From the sequence record LC739536.1: a DNA stretch of 64,000 bases; one strand, 5' to 3'. The notes under the pieces are model-generated. The model had not been told where the DNA came from. It was given only the letters and a program-made list of their open reading frames with translations, and did no database searches. The position numbers and the translations under genes were made by a program. Origin of the DNA: Escherichia phage phiWec187. This document shows, piece by piece, positions 3,584-64,000 of the stretch (the first letter of the stretch is position 1; the number at the start of each line of letters is the position of its first letter).

Positions 3584-4213
3584 ATGGCAGTGAGTGTTGA
3601 CCATGTGACAACGTGGGATAGTATCAATGAAGATGTTAAAGACCTACTGATTGAAGATTTTAAATCTTCTCCGAACATTGTCAAACTACTCTATATCATT
3701 TCTAGCGAAAAACAAAAGATAGATCAGGCAATGATCTATCTTGCCAAACACCGCTTGATCTCTACTGCAACTGGTAAGTATTTAGATCTTATTGGTGAAG
3801 AGATGGGGATGGAAAGAAATGGTGCTACAGATGAAGAGTATCGTACAATATTAAAAATCAGGGCTTATCGTGTTGCGTCTTCTGGTACGCGAGATGATAT
3901 CATTGATATGTTCGCTCGTTTTACAGGAACAGAAAAAGAAACGATCAATACATACGTTGGATTAAATAAAACATTCGACGTATTCTTTTATAATTTGTGT
4001 CTACAATCCGATCAGGCAGTAGCACAGTTACTTAACGTTTTCCCGATCCTAAGTAGTTATCGCTTAGGTGCGAAAGCGGGTTCAGCCTTTGGTTTCACTT
4101 CCTATTATGCCACAACTCCACCTCATGGCATAGGTGGTTTAGGTTCTCTTTACACAGAGGCTGAAGGAGATGATACAGGGCGAATGACTATGCTGATAGC
4201 TCAAATAGAATAA
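3584..4213 (+). CDS. putative baseplate/tail protein
   Basis: 209-aa ORF 3 nt after the preceding stop; sits between baseplate-like and fibre genes. Confidence 0.4.
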   Translation: MAVSVDHVTTWDSINEDVKDLLIEDFKSSPNIVKLLYIISSEKQKIDQAMIYLAKHRLISTATGKYLDLIGEEMGMERNGATDEEYRTILKIRAYRVASSGTRDDIIDMFARFTGTEKETINTYVGLNKTFDVFFYNLCLQSDQAVAQLLNVFPILSSYRLGAKAGSAFGFTSYYATTPPHGIGGLGSLYTEAEGDDTGRMTMLIAQIE

Positions 4214-34602: not shown

Positions 34603-34679
34603 TCTTTTCTCCTCTTTAATGCGGAGGACAATCCTCCGCTCTATGTCTTATACTATAAACTGTTTTTAAAGAAAGTCAA

Positions 34680-56637: not shown

Positions 56638-57189
56638 ATGCGGATTACTGATAAGTATGTGTTCTTCTTTTCAGCAAAAGATGAATTTAGCAACTGGTAT
56701 CTATCATCTTTTATTGAACCTTTAGCACCCAAGTATAATAATTCTATTACAAGTTCTGTTGAATTTACTTGTGTGGAACAATATATGATGTGGAGAAAAG
56801 CATGTTTGTTTTATGATTACAGTATTGCATCTTCTATTTTAACCGGAGATCTAAGATATACAGGAGAAAAAGAACAAGCATATTATAAGCGACTAGGCAG
56901 ATTAGTTAAAGATTATGATGAAGATACCTGGACTTCTTTACGGGAGAAGATTGTCAAACGTGGTTTGTATCTTAAATACACACAAAATGAAGATCTCAAA
57001 AATAAACTTATAGCTTACGCAGATAAGGAGTTTGTAGAGGCAAGTCCTTATGATTCTATTTATGGTATCAAAATGGGGATGTGGGATCGGGACGTGGAAA
57101 ATAAGGATTGTTGGAAAGGACAAAATCTTTTAGGAAAATGGCATACAGACCTTGCTGTTTATCTAAAAGCCCACTCTGATATTTCCTGA
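56638..57189 (+). CDS. NADAR-domain protein (YbiA-like)
   Basis: FFFS...FSNW, EQYMMWRKA, EASPYDSIYGIKMG and GQNLLGK blocks match the NADAR/YbiA pattern. Confidence 0.6.
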   Translation: MRITDKYVFFFSAKDEFSNWYLSSFIEPLAPKYNNSITSSVEFTCVEQYMMWRKACLFYDYSIASSILTGDLRYTGEKEQAYYKRLGRLVKDYDEDTWTSLREKIVKRGLYLKYTQNEDLKNKLIAYADKEFVEASPYDSIYGIKMGMWDRDVENKDCWKGQNLLGKWHTDLAVYLKAHSDIS

Positions 57190-57405
57190 TATTTTGAAAA
57201 TTTTTATTTTTATAAAAAGGGGTGTGGGTTTCATGTACGGAAATTCACCCTCTGAATAATATATTCAGAGTAAATATTATTTTGTACTCTGTTAATAAAC
57301 TATTTAATTTGTTTGTTGGATTATGATATCTGGTTTTTAAAAGGCATACTATCTCTTAACTACTATTTATAACAGAACAGTAAAATCATTTTTATAAAAA
57401 GGACA

Positions 57406-57610
57406 AAATTATTTAAAGTTTTTACAGATTTTTGGATACAAATTTTGAAAATGAAAAGTTCAAGTTTGGTCAAAATTATTTAAAGTTTTTGTATGTATTT
57501 CTATCCAGATTTTGAAAATGAAAACTTCAATTTTTTAAAAATTCCCCAGTTTATTTAAAGTTTTTTTGCCTTTTTCCGTAGAAAAATCAAAAATGAAAAG
57601 TTCAATTTCG
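57406..57610. repeat. three tandem ~65-75-bp direct repeats
   Basis: Each unit carries tatttaaagttttt then, about 20 nt later, tttgaaaatgaaaagttcaa. Confidence 0.7.
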
Positions 57611-57629
57611 TGTTTTTATAGGTGTGCGT

Positions 57630-57745
57630 ATGATAATCATTCTCATTTGTAAATGAGAATGATTATCATTTAATTATGTAAGTGATAATCATTCTCACTA
57701 AGAGAATGAGAATCATTAGCAAATGAGAATTTTTCTCATTTATAG
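57630..57745. promoter_or_regulatory. cluster of Fur-box-like palindromes
   Basis: Perfect 19-bp inverted repeat atgataatcattctcattt / aaatgagaatgattatcat (57630-57669) containing AATGATAATCATT, an exact 13-nt match to the core of the E. coli Fur box GATAATGATAATCATTATC; two more partial copies to 57745. Confidence 0.5.
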
Positions 57746-58001
57746 AATAACGCGCAGGGGTGGTGTTTGTCTCGCGCTCCCGTGTCCCCTCGCCATACAA
57801 TAAGAATAGCATAACTAACAACAAAAGCAAGCAATTATTTTTATCTTTACATTTCTTTACAAATTTATTTTAGACGAGCTACCGGCGATCAACCTTCCAA
57901 CCAGTGCCCCCTGGTATGTTAGCCCCGCCTTTACGCCGTGGGGTGGCGTTTCCTCTTCTGTATGTAAAACAGTATAAGCCCGATCCCTGGGCTTGTCAAG
58001 A

Positions 58002-58268
58002 TTATTTTTTGTTTTCTTGCCAGGATAGGACACCTAACCAAAAATACATGTCGCCCCGCGCCCCTGGCGGGATCTTGCTTTCCCCGCCGCCACTGCAAGC
58101 CCATAGATAACCATTAGCGAACGGATCAAAGTGATCTATTTCTTCCACCTTATGATCGCCCAGGTTGAGAACGGTTTCAACCTTTAAGCCCGTTGCGCTT
58201 GCTACCTGGTGCGCCGTGCCGCCTTGCCAGCCTAATGAGTGCATGAGGTGTAGAGTAGTATTTGTCAT
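58002..58268 (-). CDS. hypothetical small protein encoded in a GC-rich island
   Basis: 88-aa ORF with its own promoter and 5' hairpin-RBS architecture (gcgcc-ctggtt-ggcgc, then caaagaaaggg...ATG); GC content far above the flanks. Confidence 0.45.
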   Translation of the reverse strand: MTNTTLHLMHSLGWQGGTAHQVASATGLKVETVLNLGDHKVEEIDHFDPFANGYLWACSGGGESKIPPGARGDMYFWLGVLSWQENKK

Positions 58269-58315
58269 GGTATCGCCCTTTCTTTGATGTGCGCCCTGGT
58301 TGGCGCGGTAGAAAG

Positions 58316-58344
58316 ATAATAGCCCTTTCCTTTATAGATAGCAA
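58316..58344 (-). promoter_or_regulatory. sigma70-like promoter for the 58268 gene
   Basis: Minus-strand TTGCTA, 17-nt spacer, TATTAT. Confidence 0.45.
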
Positions 58345-58380
58345 GCAAAAAAAAGAAATGAAAAAAGATTAAAAAAGGGG

Positions 58381-58409
58381 TTGACGTTCCTCACCTGGTA
58401 GCGTATTAT
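58381..58409 (+). promoter_or_regulatory. sigma70-like promoter (divergent partner)
   Basis: TTGACG, 17-nt spacer, TATTAT. Confidence 0.5.
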
Positions 58410-58536
58410 TCATCTTGTCGAGGGGGGCGAGGCACAACGACAATAAACAAAAGGAGGGCGCAATGTAGGACGGGCAAAGGTGAGGATCTCCATAATCCAC
58501 CGTCACAATAACATTACTTATAAAAGGTTGATAACG

Positions 58537-58632
58537 ATGATCAAGAAAGAAAACAGCTTGACGGTTGGAACGATTAACGCTATCATTCTTGCCGTTCCAT
58601 TTTGGATTGTAGTTGCGGTTATTATTTTTTAA
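58537..58632 (+). CDS. small hydrophobic peptide (31 aa)
   Basis: MIKKENSLTVGTINAIILAVPFWIVVAVIIF; below the ORF-track length cutoff; weak RBS. Confidence 0.3.
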   Translation: MIKKENSLTVGTINAIILAVPFWIVVAVIIF

Positions 58633-58640
58633 AAATATTC

Positions 58641-58668
58641 TTGACAACGTTTTTTAATCTGATAAGAT
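58641..58668 (+). promoter_or_regulatory. early promoter
   Basis: TTGACA, 16-nt spacer, TAAGAT; followed by the 58681-58696 hairpin. Confidence 0.6.
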
Positions 58669-58720
58669 GTATCACATAGGGCGGCAATAGTGCCGCTCAT
58701 AACAGAAGAGAGAAATAATC

Positions 58721-58993
58721 ATGGCATCATATAGCGCATCAATGATCGTAATGGGCATCACTGGTAAACCTATGCGCGGTGGCGGATCTTTCGCTAACAT
58801 CAATATTGATGGGCGTTTATCCCTGGATGCAGCGATCACCGTGGCACGGGAAACATTTAAAAAAGAATGCAATTTCAATAAACAAGATTATCTCGGTTTC
58901 GCTATTGAAAAAACCGCGCGCTTTGTGGATTATAAAAGCCCGAAAATGATCGACACTACACTAAAAGCGCAAGATGTAGCGTTTTTGCTTTAA
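58721..58993 (+). CDS. early protein, hypothetical
   Basis: 90-aa ORF with promoter, 5' stem-loop and RBS. Confidence 0.5.
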   Translation: MASYSASMIVMGITGKPMRGGGSFANINIDGRLSLDAAITVARETFKKECNFNKQDYLGFAIEKTARFVDYKSPKMIDTTLKAQDVAFLL

Positions 58994-58996
58994 GGC

Positions 58997-59024
58997 TTGA
59001 CACTGAAAAATAATTTAGTAATAT
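58997..59024 (+). promoter_or_regulatory. early promoter
   Basis: TTGACA, 16-nt spacer, TAATAT; hairpin ggcgggg...cccgcc at 59036-59057. Confidence 0.6.
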
Positions 59025-59079
59025 ATACCACGTAAGGCGGGGAAATGATTTCCCGCCAAATCAAAGAAAGGGTAATGCA

Positions 59080-59442
59080 ATGAGCAAGCAAATCAATACT
59101 ATCATGTTTAATCTGGTATCTTTCCGCGATGACGTGAAAAACCTTTCGCGTGATGCAGTGGATGCACGGATCGAAAGCTATCGCACACAGATCGCAACGT
59201 TACCGCTGAAACGTGATCAACATGCCGCTAATATGATGCTTGATGCTATGATTAAAAAGATGATTCAATGTGATCTTACCCTGGCTTATGAATATGCTGG
59301 CGATCTTTTTGTAACGTATAATAAGCCCGTTCCAGGTATGAGCACCACGGAAGAATTGCATGCCTTAAATCTGCGACAAGATGCATGGGATAACATGCGC
59401 CGTGTTATGGTATGGGTAGAAAGCGGTAAAATTTACGAATAA
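59080..59442 (+). CDS. early protein, hypothetical
   Basis: 120-aa ORF with promoter/hairpin/RBS. Confidence 0.5.
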   Translation: MSKQINTIMFNLVSFRDDVKNLSRDAVDARIESYRTQIATLPLKRDQHAANMMLDAMIKKMIQCDLTLAYEYAGDLFVTYNKPVPGMSTTEELHALNLRQDAWDNMRRVMVWVESGKIYE

Positions 59443-59448
59443 AAACGG

Positions 59449-59476
59449 TTGACATTGCACTAAAACCTGATAAGCT
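59449..59476 (+). promoter_or_regulatory. early promoter
   Basis: TTGACA, 16-nt spacer, TAAGCT; hairpin gcgggaa-ttg-ttcccgc at 59485-59501. Confidence 0.55.
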
Positions 59477-59520
59477 ATCTTAAAGCGGGAATTGTTCCCG
59501 CTTACATAGGATAAAACTTT

Positions 59521-59667
59521 ATGAAACAATATGTAATGAGTATTCACACCAAAAACGGCGCTACTGTTACGACTCCGGCACGGTTTGCACTTGTAAACCG
59601 CTGCAAGAGACTAAAACGAGAGCTAAAAAACAACCGTGCAACGGGCTTTAAACGCTGGGGAGGATAA
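59521..59667 (+). CDS. early small basic protein (48 aa)
   Basis: MKQYVMSIHTKNGATVTTPARFALVNRCKRLKRELKNNRATGFKRWGG; below the ORF-track cutoff. Confidence 0.4.
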   Translation: MKQYVMSIHTKNGATVTTPARFALVNRCKRLKRELKNNRATGFKRWGG

Positions 59668-59669
59668 TC

Positions 59670-59930
59670 TTGTTTTTTCTAAAAGTTTTTGATAATGTGA
59701 TCGCTTTTGAACATGCTACAACGTTCGACCTGGCGAGATACGCTATCAGGTTTAAAGATAATGTTTATCCCCGTGCTGGCGGCGGTTACACTATTTTTAA
59801 TCATCGTAACGCTCAATTAACGGATATAACTAATCCAGGCCCTGGAGTGTATCGCATAGGCTGGCTACCGTCAAAAGACGCGGCAAGCATGTTTAAGGTA
59901 TGTAAACTACTAACAGAAGAGGCGAACTAA
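59670..59930 (+). CDS. early protein, hypothetical (TTG start)
   Basis: 86-aa ORF starting at TTG 8 nt after GGGGAGG, translationally coupled to the preceding small ORF. Confidence 0.4.
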   Translation: MFFLKVFDNVIAFEHATTFDLARYAIRFKDNVYPRAGGGYTIFNHRNAQLTDITNPGPGVYRIGWLPSKDAASMFKVCKLLTEEAN

Positions 59931-59931
59931 C

Positions 59932-60486
59932 ATGGGGCGTGAATATGTGATCCAGTCCTGGGTAAAGCATGATGCTAATGATCCGCGCATAATACCAGAT
60001 GACATGATCGATCACATGGTAGGGTATAGCGGGGAGCAGATAGGAAATCGAGCGGCAAAGAGCAACGGCAACACAAAGGCGCGATCCGTTCGCCCTGGTT
60101 GGCTGGCAAATGGTAACGCTGACATTGCAAGCGCCGCAGATCCAAGCGATGACGCTAAAAATAATCCCTTATACAGCATTGATCCGGCTTTTAAGGTGTT
60201 AGAAGAATATCCCGCTAAATTAGCCGCACTAGATAAGGCATACGAAGAAAAGCGCATGGCATGGACTGTATACAACACCGCTAAAATGGTGCTAGATGCA
60301 AAATTGATTAAAGCCCAGGAGAAGATCAATAAACTTGTTGCAGTAGCGCAAGAGGAAGACCAGGACGACCAGGAGGAAGAGGAAGAAATCATGCCTACCC
60401 TGGAAGAGGAAGAGATCCAGCCATACACGCCGACAGAAGAGGAAAAAATACAAGCCTTAAAAAATTATAAAAATTGTATTGTGTAA
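59932..60486 (+). CDS. early protein with highly acidic C-terminus
   Basis: 184 aa; EEDQDDQEEEEEIMPTLEEEEIQ tail. Confidence 0.45.
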   Translation: MGREYVIQSWVKHDANDPRIIPDDMIDHMVGYSGEQIGNRAAKSNGNTKARSVRPGWLANGNADIASAADPSDDAKNNPLYSIDPAFKVLEEYPAKLAALDKAYEEKRMAWTVYNTAKMVLDAKLIKAQEKINKLVAVAQEEDQDDQEEEEEIMPTLEEEEIQPYTPTEEEKIQALKNYKNCIV

Positions 60487-60489
60487 GGC

Positions 60490-60518
60490 TTGACATATGC
60501 AAACAAGCCCCGTAATAT
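60490..60518 (+). promoter_or_regulatory. early promoter
   Basis: TTGACA, 17-nt spacer, TAATAT. Confidence 0.55.
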
Positions 60519-60567
60519 GTACCACATAGAGCGGGGCAACCCCCTCAAAGGTGAAATAAAAAATCAC

Positions 60568-60595
60568 TTGACAACTGAAATCAGTAAGCTATAAT
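60568..60595 (+). promoter_or_regulatory. early promoter with consensus elements
   Basis: TTGACA, 16-nt spacer, TATAAT (both hexamers perfect). Confidence 0.65.
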
Positions 60596-60632
60596 GCTTA
60601 TATAAATTAAAGCGTTACTAAGGAATAAAATC

Positions 60633-60998
60633 ATGGCTAAAAATATCAATGTTTCTGCTTATGCTACCCTGGCTAACACTGCTAAAATTGAACTATCCAG
60701 CATTGAAGCGGTACATATTAGCGCCCGTCGCTGGTTTCAAAAGTCTTATGGTAATACTTATTTCTCTTTGATGGTTGACGTTGAGATCGGCGGTAAACTG
60801 ATTGAAGTCGTTAACGTTCCGTTTCAATATGGTTATGGTGATCATTTTGATACCGTCGCCCTGGAAGAGTTTAGCAAGGTTATCAACCTGGAAGGTAAAG
60901 ACTTTTCAAATTATGCTTACCTTTCCCGTTTTTGCCGTGATAATGGGATCGCTGTATACAGTCATGCAAGCGATGTTAAACGTAAAAAAGATTTATAA
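60633..60998 (+). CDS. early protein, hypothetical
   Basis: 121-aa ORF downstream of tandem promoters. Confidence 0.5.
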   Translation: MAKNINVSAYATLANTAKIELSSIEAVHISARRWFQKSYGNTYFSLMVDVEIGGKLIEVVNVPFQYGYGDHFDTVALEEFSKVINLEGKDFSNYAYLSRFCRDNGIAVYSHASDVKRKKDL

Positions 60999-61004
60999 AA
61001 AGCA

Positions 61005-61032
61005 TTGACAGCACGAATAAAAAGCATATAAT
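61005..61032 (+). promoter_or_regulatory. early promoter
   Basis: TTGACA, 16-nt spacer, TATAAT; hairpin gcgggaa-tag-ttcccgc at 61046-61061. Confidence 0.65.
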
Positions 61033-61086
61033 ACTTATATCGAGAGCGGGAATAGTTCCCGCCTCACTGAAAAAGAGATTAACATC

Positions 61087-61326
61087 ATGGCTAAATCTAA
61101 AATGTTCTTAGGTCACAAAAACAAAACTCATTGGAATGTAAGCCTTTGGATCAACAACGATGAAGGTTTTTATAATCTTGCGCGTGAATTTATCGCAGCT
61201 AACACCAATAAGAATGACGCAGCGCGTGATATGATGTTATTTCTTGAAAGTATGGATCAAGATAAAACGCCAGACGGTTACAAGTTCAGTAAAACTGCAA
61301 TCCGTGCCGCTATGGTAGGAATGTAA
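61087..61326 (+). CDS. early protein, hypothetical
   Basis: 79-aa ORF with promoter/hairpin/RBS. Confidence 0.5.
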   Translation: MAKSKMFLGHKNKTHWNVSLWINNDEGFYNLAREFIAANTNKNDAARDMMLFLESMDQDKTPDGYKFSKTAIRAAMVGM

Positions 61327-61335
61327 TAAAAGCAG

Positions 61336-61363
61336 TTGACAACGTTTTTTAATCTGGTATAGT
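61336..61363 (+). promoter_or_regulatory. early promoter, near-duplicate of the one at 58641
   Basis: TTGACA, 16-nt spacer, TATAGT; first ~24 bp (ttgacaacgttttttaatctg) identical to 58641-58661; hairpin ggcgggaaa-tgg-tttcccgcc at 61375-61395. Confidence 0.6.
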
Positions 61364-61417
61364 TTATCACATAGGGCGGGAAATGGTTTCCCGCCAAATC
61401 AAAGAAAGGTTATCATT

Positions 61418-61645
61418 ATGGCTATCGTTATTGTTCGCGTATCCGGTACGGTTGGAAGCTCCCAGGTAGTAGCAGTTATCACCGAGAAGAAAGGGGATGA
61501 TCTTCACTCTTCCTTGAATAGCTGGGCGGTCGCTAACTTCGGGCAATGGTCGAGCGTTGAGTACATCGAATCCTACCAGGTGCCAACGATTAGCCTAACC
61601 GATCTGAATGTTGATCGCTTGTTGTGCCTGGATGGATTAAACTAA
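61418..61645 (+). CDS. early protein, hypothetical
   Basis: 75-aa ORF. Confidence 0.5.
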   Translation: MAIVIVRVSGTVGSSQVVAVITEKKGDDLHSSLNSWAVANFGQWSSVEYIESYQVPTISLTDLNVDRLLCLDGLN

Positions 61646-61653
61646 AAATAATA

Positions 61654-61681
61654 TTGACAAGATAACTAAAATCAGTAAAAT
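61654..61681 (+). promoter_or_regulatory. early promoter
   Basis: TTGACA, 16-nt spacer, TAAAAT; hairpin gggcggca-atag-tgccgccc at 61692-61712. Confidence 0.6.
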
Positions 61682-61732
61682 GTAATGCATAGGGCGGCAA
61701 TAGTGCCGCCCCTAGTGAGAGAGATTATCAAC

Positions 61733-61948
61733 ATGGCTAATATCCGCACCTTGTTAAAAAATGCAAAGCAAGTTTTATTTTCAGATGACGAATATTTTAA
61801 TAAAGATATTACAGGCGTGAAAAATTTAAAAGACGTGAAGGATGTTATCGGTATCCGTGGATCTTTACGTAAAGGTGACATATACGGTAACAAGGTGCAG
61901 TATAAACTGTCAAAAGATTATGATTTTACTTTGACAATTATTTCATAA
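61733..61948 (+). CDS. early protein, hypothetical
   Basis: Start at the internal ATG after the 5' hairpin; the listed longer ORF would begin inside the promoter/hairpin. Confidence 0.5.
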   Translation: MANIRTLLKNAKQVLFSDDEYFNKDITGVKNLKDVKDVIGIRGSLRKGDIYGNKVQYKLSKDYDFTLTIIS

Positions 61949-62038
61949 AACTACTTGCAAACCTGGTAAAATAAAGTAAACTATATTCATTAAGGCGGTG
62001 GAATAGCCCACCGCCTAACAAAGAGAAGAGGAAACATC

Positions 62039-62209
62039 ATGATCACTTTCGCTACCCGTGAAGCCGCTCGCAACGTTGCACGTAAAGTTAATGCCGCCAA
62101 CCTGGGCGCTACGCTTAAAGCCCCGGTAAAAGATGAATCAGGAAAATGGATCTTCCCTGGTCTGCGTCACGCTGATAAGCTGGGAACATTAACGTTAAAA
62201 AATAAATAA
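62039..62209 (+). CDS. early small protein (56 aa)
   Basis: MITFATREAARNVARKVNAANLGATLKAPVKDESGKWIFPGLRHADKLGTLTLKNK; preceded by hairpin ggcggtgg-aatagc-ccaccgcc (61994-62015) and RBS. Confidence 0.45.
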   Translation: MITFATREAARNVARKVNAANLGATLKAPVKDESGKWIFPGLRHADKLGTLTLKNK

Positions 62210-62216
62210 TATCCGC

Positions 62217-62245
62217 TTGACAGTAGCATGATTTATAAGTAAAGT
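62217..62245 (+). promoter_or_regulatory. early promoter
   Basis: TTGACA, 17-nt spacer, TAAAGT; hairpin ggcgggaaa-tgg-tttcccgcc at 62255-62275. Confidence 0.55.
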
Positions 62246-62295
62246 AACAACAACGGCGGGAAATGGTTTCCCGCCATCAATAAAGAGATAAGATT

Positions 62296-62655
62296 ATGAA
62301 ATCAGTAAAAGCAATTAAAACTTACATTGTGTCGGCTATTTCTTTTGAAGGTACTACAACAGAAAAAGAAAAGATCACCGAACTGATGCGCCGTTTTAAG
62401 TCTGAATACTGGTATACCGATAATCAAAAACGTTACAATCATAACATGACCAAGGCGATAGCCTCATGGTTACAAGGTTTACCGTCAGAAATCAATATTG
62501 CTTTTGATTATAACGAGATCGATCACTTGTTAATCGAATGGAAGTATATAAAAGAAACAAGCAAAGAAACAACCGTTACCCGTGAGCGGGAAAATTATTG
62601 GTTATATATTGCAAGCATGATCGTAACTTTGGCAAAATATCATAAAGTAGCGTAA
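62296..62655 (+). CDS. early protein, hypothetical
   Basis: 119-aa ORF. Confidence 0.5.
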   Translation: MKSVKAIKTYIVSAISFEGTTTEKEKITELMRRFKSEYWYTDNQKRYNHNMTKAIASWLQGLPSEINIAFDYNEIDHLLIEWKYIKETSKETTVTRERENYWLYIASMIVTLAKYHKVA

Positions 62656-62669
62656 TTAAGAGGAAAAAC

Positions 62670-62807
62670 ATGAACGCATCACAGCAGATCGAAAAATTCA
62701 ACCGCAACAAAGCGCGTAAAGATTGGAACGAAGAGATCACCAAGAAAGGCGACAAGCGGAACAAAACAAAGAGAGATCGCAGCACAAAAAGATACTGGAA
62801 CGAATAA
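62670..62807 (+). CDS. early small basic protein (45 aa)
   Basis: MNASQQIEKFNRNKARKDWNEEITKKGDKRNKTKRDRSTKRYWNE; RBS AAGAGGAAAAAC; terminator follows. Confidence 0.4.
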   Translation: MNASQQIEKFNRNKARKDWNEEITKKGDKRNKTKRDRSTKRYWNE

Positions 62808-62812
62808 CAAGA

Positions 62813-62840
62813 AAGGGCGCAATAAGCGCCCTTTTAGCTT
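62813..62840 (+). terminator. rho-independent terminator
   Basis: aagggcgc-aata-agcgccctt followed by ttagctt. Confidence 0.6.
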
Positions 62841-62925
62841 ATATAGAGGCTTGTTACCCATAGGCAATGGTAACGCCAGGATAAGCCTATAAACCACGTT
62901 AGACAGCTTTACAGGAGCTTTAAAA

Positions 62926-63108
62926 ATGAAATTAGACGAAATAAGCAAGGCACTAGCCCAGGGGCAAAGGTTATGCGCCCGATATCGTGATCAATATGGC
63001 TTCATAACTAGCGGCGTGATCCTGGGGATTGAAGGCAATAAGATTTTTATTGACACGTTGAAAAACGTTGTATATAGTGACAATATAATCTCAATAAAAC
63101 ATATATGA
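62926..63108 (+). CDS. hypothetical small protein
   Basis: 60-aa ORF; its 3' end contains a promoter-like TTGACA-N17-TATAGT. Confidence 0.3.
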   Translation: MKLDEISKALAQGQRLCARYRDQYGFITSGVILGIEGNKIFIDTLKNVVYSDNIISIKHI

Positions 63109-63116
63109 GGCAAGAA

Positions 63117-63518
63117 ATGAAAAAATTATTGATCGCTGGTTTACTCTCTTTTGGCATGGTTGGAACATCTAGCGCGGCGATATCCTCCACAGTAGCAGAA
63201 TTAAGCGCCGTTGATGCAATGGAAAACGTCATGCTTATTAATAATGCGATCCCCGATGAAATCATGGAGGATTTACACATGATCGCTTATGGTGCTGTTA
63301 CACAACTAACGGCAAAAATAGATAAATCTATTGTTAATGGCTTAAATGAAGATGTACCATGTGAAATTATTACCAGTGTGCTGACTACTCAAAATTTTAC
63401 GCCGTGGCTAAAAAGTATTCAAAAGGTGCATAGTGCAGCCGCAGATCGTAGCAATGAAAAACTAGTGTCAGCACTTGCAACGTATACCCTAGCAAAATGC
63501 ACCGAGATAAAAGATTGA
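63117..63518 (+). CDS. secreted/periplasmic hypothetical protein
   Basis: Start at MKKLLIAGLLSFGMVGTSSA (signal peptide). Confidence 0.45.
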   Translation: MKKLLIAGLLSFGMVGTSSAAISSTVAELSAVDAMENVMLINNAIPDEIMEDLHMIAYGAVTQLTAKIDKSIVNGLNEDVPCEIITSVLTTQNFTPWLKSIQKVHSAAADRSNEKLVSALATYTLAKCTEIKD

Positions 63519-63565
63519 CAACATAGAAAGCACGTTATAAGATACACACAACAAAGGAGAACTAC

Positions 63566-63868
63566 ATGAACGGCATAGCTAAAACGTTTTTTCTTTTTTC
63601 TGGTGTAAATGATCCATCAATAAAAGTCGATAGTGTAAAAGAAAACAATACTATCACCGCTAAATTGTTTCAAGATGAAACAAATAACGTGCTAATCATT
63701 AATCTTAAAGAAATAACGAAAGGTTATTATACTATTGCTTACCATGCAATTTATCATGCTGGTACTAGTGAGGAAGTGCAAACAAGCAACAACGAAAGCG
63801 CGGCGCTACCTGGTGATCTGGTGCTGGGCGTTATCAGTTTAATTGTCAATGATTTTTTTAAGGAGTAA
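63566..63868 (+). CDS. early protein, hypothetical
   Basis: 100-aa ORF after TTGACA-N15-TATAAG and RBS AAAGGAGA. Confidence 0.45.
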   Translation: MNGIAKTFFLFSGVNDPSIKVDSVKENNTITAKLFQDETNNVLIINLKEITKGYYTIAYHAIYHAGTSEEVQTSNNESAALPGDLVLGVISLIVNDFFKE

Positions 63869-64000
63869 AACCATGCCCTATTTACATTTATTTTTCGGTA
63901 TCTTATTGACAGGATCTTTTTTCTTCTGTATGCTTGTTTCTATTGTAAACCACGTTTTAAGACATTAAGGAAACAGCATGAAAATTATTCCCGTACAATA

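Follow-up and report, generated by a model that had tools for sequence, protein, structure and literature searches.

The 64,000-nucleotide (nt) stretch of Escherichia phage phiWec187 analyzed here (sequence record LC739536.1; hereafter the window) carries two promoter-leader segments, starting at positions 58641 and 61336, that are probably paralogs, each a copy of a portable cassette for early gene expression in a phi92-like coliphage. In the reading favored here, held as a whole with good but not complete confidence, each cassette joins a promoter to a leader hairpin that would act as a 5' stabilizer of the transcript, and the cassettes recombine with each other. Judged from sequence and backed by comparative evidence, the feature is a real family of apparently mobile early promoter-hairpin cassettes resembling the promoter-early stem-loops (PeSLs) of T4-type phages, a concept that is already known.

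The initial annotation had noticed an identical run in the two segments and a common start of their hairpin regions, upstream of different small open reading frames (ORFs), and each of these observations stands. The 21-mer TTGACAACGTTTTTTAATCTG occurs exactly only at 58641-58661 and 61336-61356 in a scan of the whole window, with no third site at three or fewer mismatches and no match in 100 dinucleotide shuffles. The 15-nt sequence TATCACATAGGGCGG is present in two exact copies (58670-58684 and 61365-61379) and at five further sites with two or three mismatches, so that seven are found versus 0.74 expected. Four of the five inexact sites are the start blocks of other cassettes (59026, 60520, 61683, and 34636 on the minus strand), and the fifth, 59850, lies within an ORF. 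From the -35 box to GGCGG the copies are identical at 39 of 44 nt, and the mismatches are confined to the surroundings of the -10 hexamer (ATAAGATG versus GTATAGTT). Past GGCGG they part into the hairpins GGGCGGCAatagTGCCGCTC (58679-58698) and GGCGGGAAAtggTTTCCCGCC (61375-61395), the first of which ends at 58698 and not, as originally given, at 58696. The ORFs that follow (58721-58993, 90 amino acids [aa], and 61418-61645, 75 aa) have no detectable similarity and encode unrelated proteins.

The pair belongs to a family of ten, which the initial annotation, right about the pair itself, had missed together with the constant hairpin component and the published PeSL precedent. The surrounding region is 95-97% identical to the phi92-like coliphages inny, phi92 and Paula (genus Justusliebigvirus, subfamily Stephanstirmvirinae) and forms the beginning of an array of small, hypothetical early genes that runs rightward (phi92 gp226-gp240) and is preceded by a non-coding stretch of about 1.3 kb with repeats. 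A covariance model built from 30 distinct cassette copies finds ten cassettes in the window with E values of 1e-14 to 1e-5, nine of them on the plus strand within 3.7 kb (58.6-62.3 kb) and one on the minus strand at 34.6 kb. This lone cassette, far from the array, lies upstream of the ortholog of the inny gene for a TerC-like integral membrane protein. In the whole inny genome, a pattern scan detects 16 promoter-plus-hairpin sites, whereas shuffled sequence gives about 0.6; of these sites, 11 are no more than 9 kb from the array. The family thus has at least 15 copies in this complete genome.

Between nearly every gene pair of 58.6-62.3 kb the intergenic units are 78-91 nt long and share one anatomy, the exception being a 146-nt spacer with two tandem promoters before the gene at 60633. 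An AT-rich stretch that includes the upstream stop codon leads into TTGACA (exact in eight of the nine array cassettes), a spacer of 16-17 nt and a -10 box of the form TAnnnT, which frequently carries a TG extension. The start block yCACrTAG, which is conserved, precedes a hairpin of 7-9 bp that is rich in GC (GCGG...CCGC) and sets in about 10 nt past the -10 box; a purine-rich leader with a Shine-Dalgarno (SD) sequence then extends to the ATG.

Within the window, the promoter blocks of 61336 and 58641 are 90% identical, versus 54-69% for all other cassette pairs, so the likeness noticed at the outset goes well past the consensus hexamers. The hairpin/leader block of 61336 resembles those of 58997 (89%) and 62217 (84%) more than that of 58641 (65%), whose own nearest relative is 61654 (79%). 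Since its halves resemble different cassettes, 61336 is a chimera of two cassette lineages, with the switch point at the conserved CACATAGGGCGG block. These alignments show the cassettes to be mosaics of exchangeable promoter and hairpin/leader halves.

Comparison with related phages places the breaks of four indels and one gene reordering inside cassettes and reveals two hybrid junctions; together with the mosaic cassettes and swapped modules, this supports the cassette shuffling, or recombination between early promoters, that had been suggested. With the window as reference, each of the four indels begins and ends at a cassette. At 60633, inny, Paula and Antha carry an additional 59-aa gene with its cassette; this gene, which the window lacks, is preceded by the second, 60568-type promoter. 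The others are the 60-aa gene inny_203 with a cassette at 61026-61096, an 88-bp segment with a mini-ORF of about 29 aa at 61327 (Paula and arall), and phi92 gp225 at 58607-58631. The alignments thus show junctions of gene gain, loss and reordering between related phages to lie inside cassettes.

The window cassette at 61005, one of the two hybrids, corresponds to the left of the two cassettes flanking inny_203 as far as the spacer and to the right one from the -10 box on, which is the expected product of recombination between flanking cassettes that would remove or add the intervening gene. In ESCO13 (genus Phapecoctavirus) the same two parents are joined, with a crossover further downstream than in the window. 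ESCO13 also has a 58641-type unit that agrees completely with the window, the upstream mini-ORF and GGGCGG included, and then runs on into the leader of the gp227 homolog. The junction at GGGCGG therefore means that the window has a "hairpin, gp226, next promoter" unit which ESCO13 lacks at this place, its gp226 being found elsewhere behind a different promoter. The mini-ORF directly 5' of cassette 58641 (58538-58632, 30 aa, MIKKENSLTVGT...) is itself conserved and accompanies the 58641-type promoter in ESCO13 (89% aa identity).

Modules are also reassorted among related phages, where one promoter module is found before different genes. The gp233 promoter has at least four alleles among the phages compared; the window allele, common to about two dozen records, differs from that of inny and phi92 at three positions, all toward the 58641 sequence. 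When about 70 records are compared, alignments break where the -35 box starts (61336) and within the spacer (61353). Upstream of the 56-aa gene MIPTMFYV the promoter is kept and the hairpin changes, being of type B in inny and of type A in Paula, Antha and arall; arall further differs in the promoter of its gp234 gene. The loop of the type-B hairpin reads ATGG in six of seven copies at the ESCO13 locus versus ATAG in all 20 copies at the Justusliebigvirus loci; by its pattern, this split is concerted evolution of paralogous copies.

Gene order is changed in ESCO13, in the jumbo phage phAPEC6 (Asteriusvirus), in 18-1-2 (Avunavirus) and in the Klebsiella phage FBKp34, whose homologs of the array genes have 34-99% aa identity (60-79% in the three phages other than ESCO13). 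The phAPEC6 homolog of gp234 is preceded by a promoter and a hairpin of the same architecture with another stem, GGGGAGAAtagTTCTCCCC. This 352-kb coliphage, which is unrelated, carries homologs of gp233, gp231 and gp234 (locus L009, 1500-5200; 63-79% aa identity) in another order, which suggests exchange of early genes between phage families. It also has a repeated promoter of its own, TTGACATAGTTTGATAGTACTGTATAAT, in two exact copies and further copies with few differences.

All nine array leaders fold into a 5'-proximal hairpin and keep the SD region free of pairing, with energies between -10.6 and -19 kcal/mol and z between -2.5 and -4.3. The non-degraded stems have 7-9 bp, energies between -14 and -19 kcal/mol and z between -2.7 and -4.3, and the degraded hairpin of 60490 folds more weakly (-10.6 kcal/mol, z -2.5). 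Of 32 cassettes examined, 24 have a stem that begins 9-11 nt past the -10 box. Inside the constant GCGG/CCGC ends the stem varies yet stays paired (CA/TG, GAAA/TTTC, TGG/CCA, AGGA/TCCT), and in an anchored hand analysis the first inner pair takes the forms C-G, G-C, T-A and A-T. GCGG and CCGC are separated by 7 to 13 nt, with 8-12 nt in the common types of hairpin, and on the sense strand G.T wobbles outnumber A.C by 13 to 4. Paired changes in the interior, variable spacing and the wobble bias point to a structure selected in the sense-strand RNA and not to a DNA palindrome that binds protein. These pairing conclusions rest on the anchored hand analysis and not on counts from model-fitted alignments; a MAFFT alignment of 30 cassettes passed to RNAalifold misaligned the 3' arms of the hairpin types and recovered only four pairs. 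An Rfam search of 57000-64000 at a permissive E value gave no match above the gathering score and three sub-threshold matches, two of them outside cassettes. One candidate, hilD_3p_UTR (minus strand, 61679-61835, spanning cassette 7), reaches 39.8 bits versus a gathering score of 74 and is most likely due to chance.

A second promoter-hairpin design, in which the -10 hexamer lies in the hairpin loop or the stem lies in the spacer, occurs at 60568-60595 in the window and, among the comparison loci, at L011:5944-5990, L012:2232-2275, 3829-3870 and 1686-1714, and L010:2654-2700. An ESCO13 example reads TTGACT..TATAGCGCC-TTATAAT-GGCGCTATA. The variant with the -10 box in the loop is found in the relatives ESCO13, FBKp34 and 18-1-2, and the window version (TAAGC-TATAAT-GCTTA) is weak.

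The most likely role of the cassette at the RNA level is stabilization of the mRNA 5' end, as far as can be judged from its layout. The promoters are near the host sigma-70 consensus and are therefore expected to fire immediately upon infection. Host RNA polymerase would start at the A of CACATAG, 7 nt past the -10 box, so the hairpin would lie 1-5 nt, in the general model 3-5 nt, from the 5' end of every early mRNA; this predicted start leaves 1-5 unpaired nt before the hairpin, versus about 0-4 for the ompA-type criterion. A stable stem-loop a few nt from the 5' end shields Escherichia coli mRNA of the ompA type from 5'-end-dependent decay by RNase E and RppH, and the hairpin of the ompA 5' untranslated region was reportedly described as an mRNA stabilizer by Emory, Bouvet and Belasco in 1992. 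The cassettes resemble this type in having a stable hairpin a few nt from the predicted 5' end and, behind it, a leader that holds the ribosome-binding site and is unstructured. They differ from ompA in that the 5' ends are predicted and in that the element recurs on about ten transcription units, coupled to the promoter as one mobile unit. The leader hairpin would thus serve as a 5'-terminal stabilizing stem-loop against 5'-end-dependent decay and perhaps also as a weak attenuator of read-through. Protection from an RNase E activity stimulated by a factor like T4 Srd was considered and dropped as unsupported, as tblastn with T4 Srd, a search of low sensitivity, found no homolog in the window or the inny genome.

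At the DNA level, conserved blocks of 15-45 nt (the promoter boxes, the start block with GGCGG, and the hairpin arms) would provide homologies for ectopic recombination. Such recombination between cassettes would delete, insert or swap the intervening gene and homogenize cassette halves, and a short exchange of this kind would most likely explain why 58641 and 61336 have the 21-mer in common. A more far-reaching proposal, which has to be called unlikely at present, is that the constant AUAG-GGCGG...CCGCC ends would make the hairpin a dedicated tag of early mRNA, for protection from host or phage-induced decay or recognition by a phage factor, and at the same time a site of exchange across families. 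The same genes are found behind the same cassette architecture in phi92-like phages, Vequintavirinae and the jumbo Asteriusvirus, and if the proposal were true, ORFan genes could move between unrelated coliphages.

Several explanations compete with recombining cassettes. A chance likeness limited to promoter consensus elements, which would have a shared TTGACA and nothing more in its favor, is already refuted by the exact matches of 21 and 15 nt, the first absent from all shuffles, and by the 90% identity of the promoter blocks, and deserves practically no weight. An old duplication alone, after which the promoters stayed similar by descent and selection without ongoing exchange, is decidedly improbable. 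In its favor, the gp226- and gp233-type promoters of the relatives vary a single theme, (AC/CT)GTTT(TTT/AAA)A(A/T)T(CTG/AGT), so their common origin is clear, and selection plausibly acts on the start block and the TG extension. However, spacers are normally unconstrained and vary between close orthologs, yet they are identical in these paralogs; the two halves of 61336 have different nearest relatives; and the hybrid junctions and the ESCO13 loop variant in six of seven type-B copies require exchange.

The other two alternatives concern the hairpin. It could be a terminator or attenuator of the upstream gene, which would make the cassette an insulating terminator-promoter pair, the classical PeSL reading. 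The stems are GC-rich and stable, one PeSL stem-loop cut lacZ expression as strongly as rrnB T1 (PMC2839356), and the annotators of Paula labelled several such hairpins terminators, though on the opposite strand. However, the 8 nt 3' of the stem contain on average 1.5 T and no U-tract in the sense direction (32 cassettes). The stem tails in the window (ATAACAGA, AAATCAAA, ACATAGGA, CTCACTGA, CTAGTGAG, AACAAAGA, ATCAATAA) have 0-2 T each, so that none of these hairpins shows the GC-rich stem directly followed by a U-tract that marks an intrinsic terminator. T-richer tails (4-5 T) occur in two of the 32 cassettes, both at the ESCO13 locus, and a terminator scan reported a single cassette hairpin, on the minus strand only. 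The end of the array uses a canonical terminator of hairpin and TTTT (62812-62838). Moreover, a hairpin at a fixed distance 3' of its own promoter would act on its own transcripts, and a terminator for upstream transcription only would normally precede the -35 box. The terminator is accordingly rejected on sequence grounds and given a rather low probability; because the hairpin lies in the transcribed leader and lacks a U-tract, a stabilizer is inferred instead. Still less probable is a DNA operator, in which a dimeric phage or host protein on GGCGG...CCGCC would silence or time early transcription. The outer GCGG/CCGC is nearly invariant, a position at +4 to +25 is typical of roadblock repressors, and early promoters need silencing later in infection. 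What makes it unlikely is the half-site spacing, which varies from 7 to 13 nt even though 8-12 nt prevail, and is unfit for a rigid dimer; the paired changes of the interior and the excess of G.T over A.C also point to sense RNA, and no candidate regulator was identified.

Some points weigh against the preferred reading of recombining, 5'-stabilizing cassettes as well. Sequence is the basis on which the promoters are predicted to be active and the hairpin is assigned its role, and the published PeSL hairpins are reported as terminators, a function that is doubted for these cassettes. In the model-fitted alignment 74.5% of cells are paired, and the covariation counted there beats every column shuffle and is equalled by a -1 slide of the partner. 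Hairpin types are few, and recombination, not compensatory mutation, may account for their spread; the three-nt difference between the window and inny in the 61336 promoter could be ordinary allelic variation and not conversion from 58641. The association of indels with cassettes is partly forced, because the intergenic DNA is nearly all cassette and an indel that disrupted an ORF would be selected against, which leaves cassettes as the place where a viable indel of a whole gene has to end in any case. Only the hybrid junctions (61005 and ESCO13) speak directly for recombination inside cassettes, and the reassortment of modules is also informative.

PeSLs, the nearest system described so far, are known from the T4-type phages RB49/phi1, T4/PST and KVP40/nt-1 (Arbiol et al., 2010, PMC2839356; Comeau et al., 2014, PMC4122927). 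They are repeated units of a sigma-70 promoter and a stem-loop in hyperplastic regions, placed 5' of ORFans and at indel junctions; terminator activity was shown for one stem-loop, and the formation of mini-circles, which recombination between neighboring cassettes would release, was demonstrated (PMC2839356; PMC4122927). Among their five subclasses, the rarest has the stem downstream of the -10 box (PMC2839356), as do the window cassettes. The cassettes further share with PeSLs a repeated intergenic unit of about 70-100 bp that comprises an AT-rich stretch, a near-consensus sigma-70 early promoter, a GC-rich stem-loop and an SD sequence. They are likewise clustered in plastic regions before small ORFans (nine of the ten window copies within 3.7 kb) and lie at insertion, deletion and replacement junctions between close relatives, chimeric cassettes included. 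The features of PeSLs that can be tested on sequence (promoter, stem-loop, clustering of copies and chimeric indel junctions) are thus all present.

The differences begin with the lineage, which is Stephanstirmvirinae here and Straboviridae for PeSLs. The stem of the window cassettes is nearly fixed at about 10 nt past the -10 box, within the predicted transcript, whereas common PeSL stems lie between or over the boxes; it has constant GCGG/CCGC ends, unlike the Gn-loop-Cn stems of RB49. The window cassettes lack a U-tract and are known from sequence, whereas PeSL termination and mini-circles are known from experiment. The design with the -10 box in the loop or the stem in the spacer, seen at 60568 and in the relatives, matches the commoner PeSL subclasses. 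Outside the T4-type phages, rV5-like and Certrevirus phages have repeated sigma-70-like early promoters (PMC3606486; PMC7344957). According to the portions of these accounts that were searched, many near-consensus host-type promoters stand amid short hypothetical early ORFs of related large myoviruses, as they do here; unlike here, promoters and terminators are listed apart, with no promoter-hairpin unit or role in gene shuffling. The literature searched on phi92-, rV5- and PVP-SE1-like phages contains only separate lists of promoters and terminators, with no description of such a cassette and no data on transcription start sites, and among the papers searched that mention PeSLs none refers to these phages in its title.

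The cassettes suggest that PeSL-type shuffling is not confined to T4-type phages and appears to operate in phi92-like phages, which are used in therapy and biocontrol, and perhaps also across phage families with E. coli as their common host. Such shuffling is a concrete mechanism for the gain and loss of accessory genes in large virulent phages. In addition, the cassettes mark the borders of individually expressed early genes and so predict where natural or engineered insertions may be tolerated; by their sequence, they are predicted to be compact, strong and self-contained expression units. The fixed position of the leader hairpin offers a testable hypothesis on the stabilization of early phage mRNA.

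Table 1. Predicted cassettes and associated elements in the window (positions in nt; bits and E values refer to the covariance model).
Feature	Position	Strand	Promoter elements	Hairpin and leader	Match	Downstream
Cassette 1 (flagged copy A)	58641..58720	+	-35 58641-46; -10 TAAGAT 58663-68, TG extension; start block GTATCACATA	58679-58698 (+); 8 bp, loop ATAG; -14.4 kcal/mol, z -3.35; leader to ATG 58721	68 bits, E 5e-12	gp226-like ORF, 90 aa
Cassette 2	58997..59079	+	-35 58997; -10 TAATAT 59019-24	59036-59057 (GGCGGGGAAatgaTTTCCCGCC); leader AAATCAAAGAAAGG, common to cassette 6	74.7 bits	gp227-like ORF 59080-59442
Cassette 3	59449..59520	+	-35 59449; -10 TAAGCT	59483-59503; z -4.33	55.9 bits	three abutting ORFs 59521-59667, 59670-59930, 59932-60486
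Tandem promoters (cassette 60490)	60490..60632	+		degraded, ~60529-60546	39 bits, E 1e-5	gp231-like ORF 60633-60998
Second promoter	60568-60595	+	perfect TTGACA/TATAAT	-10 in loop of weak stem TAAGC-TATAAT-GCTTA
Cassette 5	61005..61086	+	-35 61005; -10 TATAAT 61027-32	61046-61062	47.5 bits	gp232-like ORF 61087-61326 (DUF7249)
Cassette 6 (flagged copy B)	61336..61417	+	-35 61336; -10 TATAGT 61358-63, TG extension; start block TTATCACATAG	61375-61395 (+); 9 bp, loop TGG	80.3 bits (best match)	gp233-like ORF 61418-61645
Cassette 7	61654..61732	+	-35 61654; -10 TAAAAT	61692-61711 (GGGCGGCAatagTGCCGCCC), cassette 1 type	59 bits	gp234-like ORF 61733-61948
Cassette 8	61955..62038	+	-35 TTGCAA 61955; -10 TAAACT 61977-82	61993-62016 (GGCGGTGG...CCACCGCC); z -4.14	49.9 bits	ORF 62039-62209
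Cassette 9	62217..62295	+	-35 62217; -10 TAAAGT 62240-45	62255-62275, identical to cassette 6 hairpin	51 bits	ORF 62296-62655
Lone cassette	34609..34679	-	TTGACT, TATAGT, GACATAGA	GCGGAGGAttgTCCTCCGC	57.1 bits, E 1e-9
Intrinsic terminator	62812-62838	+		G+C-rich stem of 7-9 pairs, core GGGCGC..GCGCCC, then TTTT

The terminator that ends the cassette array follows ORF 62670-62807 and is terminator-like on the minus strand too. Ten downstream proteins compared with Pfam and PHROGs match only PHROGs of unknown function, plus one DUF7249. Several GenBank records name the product of ORF 61733-61948 (71 aa; orthologs inny_206 and arall_100) phosphoribosylpyrophosphate synthetase. This protein matches nothing in Pfam and falls into a PHROG without known function, and the label is probably a mistaken annotation carry-over. 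Five records of a "Campylobacter phage" (MG065639, MG065645, MG065650, MG065656 and MG065689) are up to 98% identical to the region, which probably reflects a wrong host label or contaminated samples. Upstream of the early array, non-coding DNA at 57388-57742 holds two clusters of repeats and may be a replication origin or a regulatory region. One cluster (57388-57608) consists of three direct repeats of about 67-79 nt each, and the other is a palindrome cluster with perfect 19-nt arms (ATGATAATCATTCTCATTT/AAATGAGAATGATTATCAT) and a Fur-box-like core, GATAATCATTCTC.

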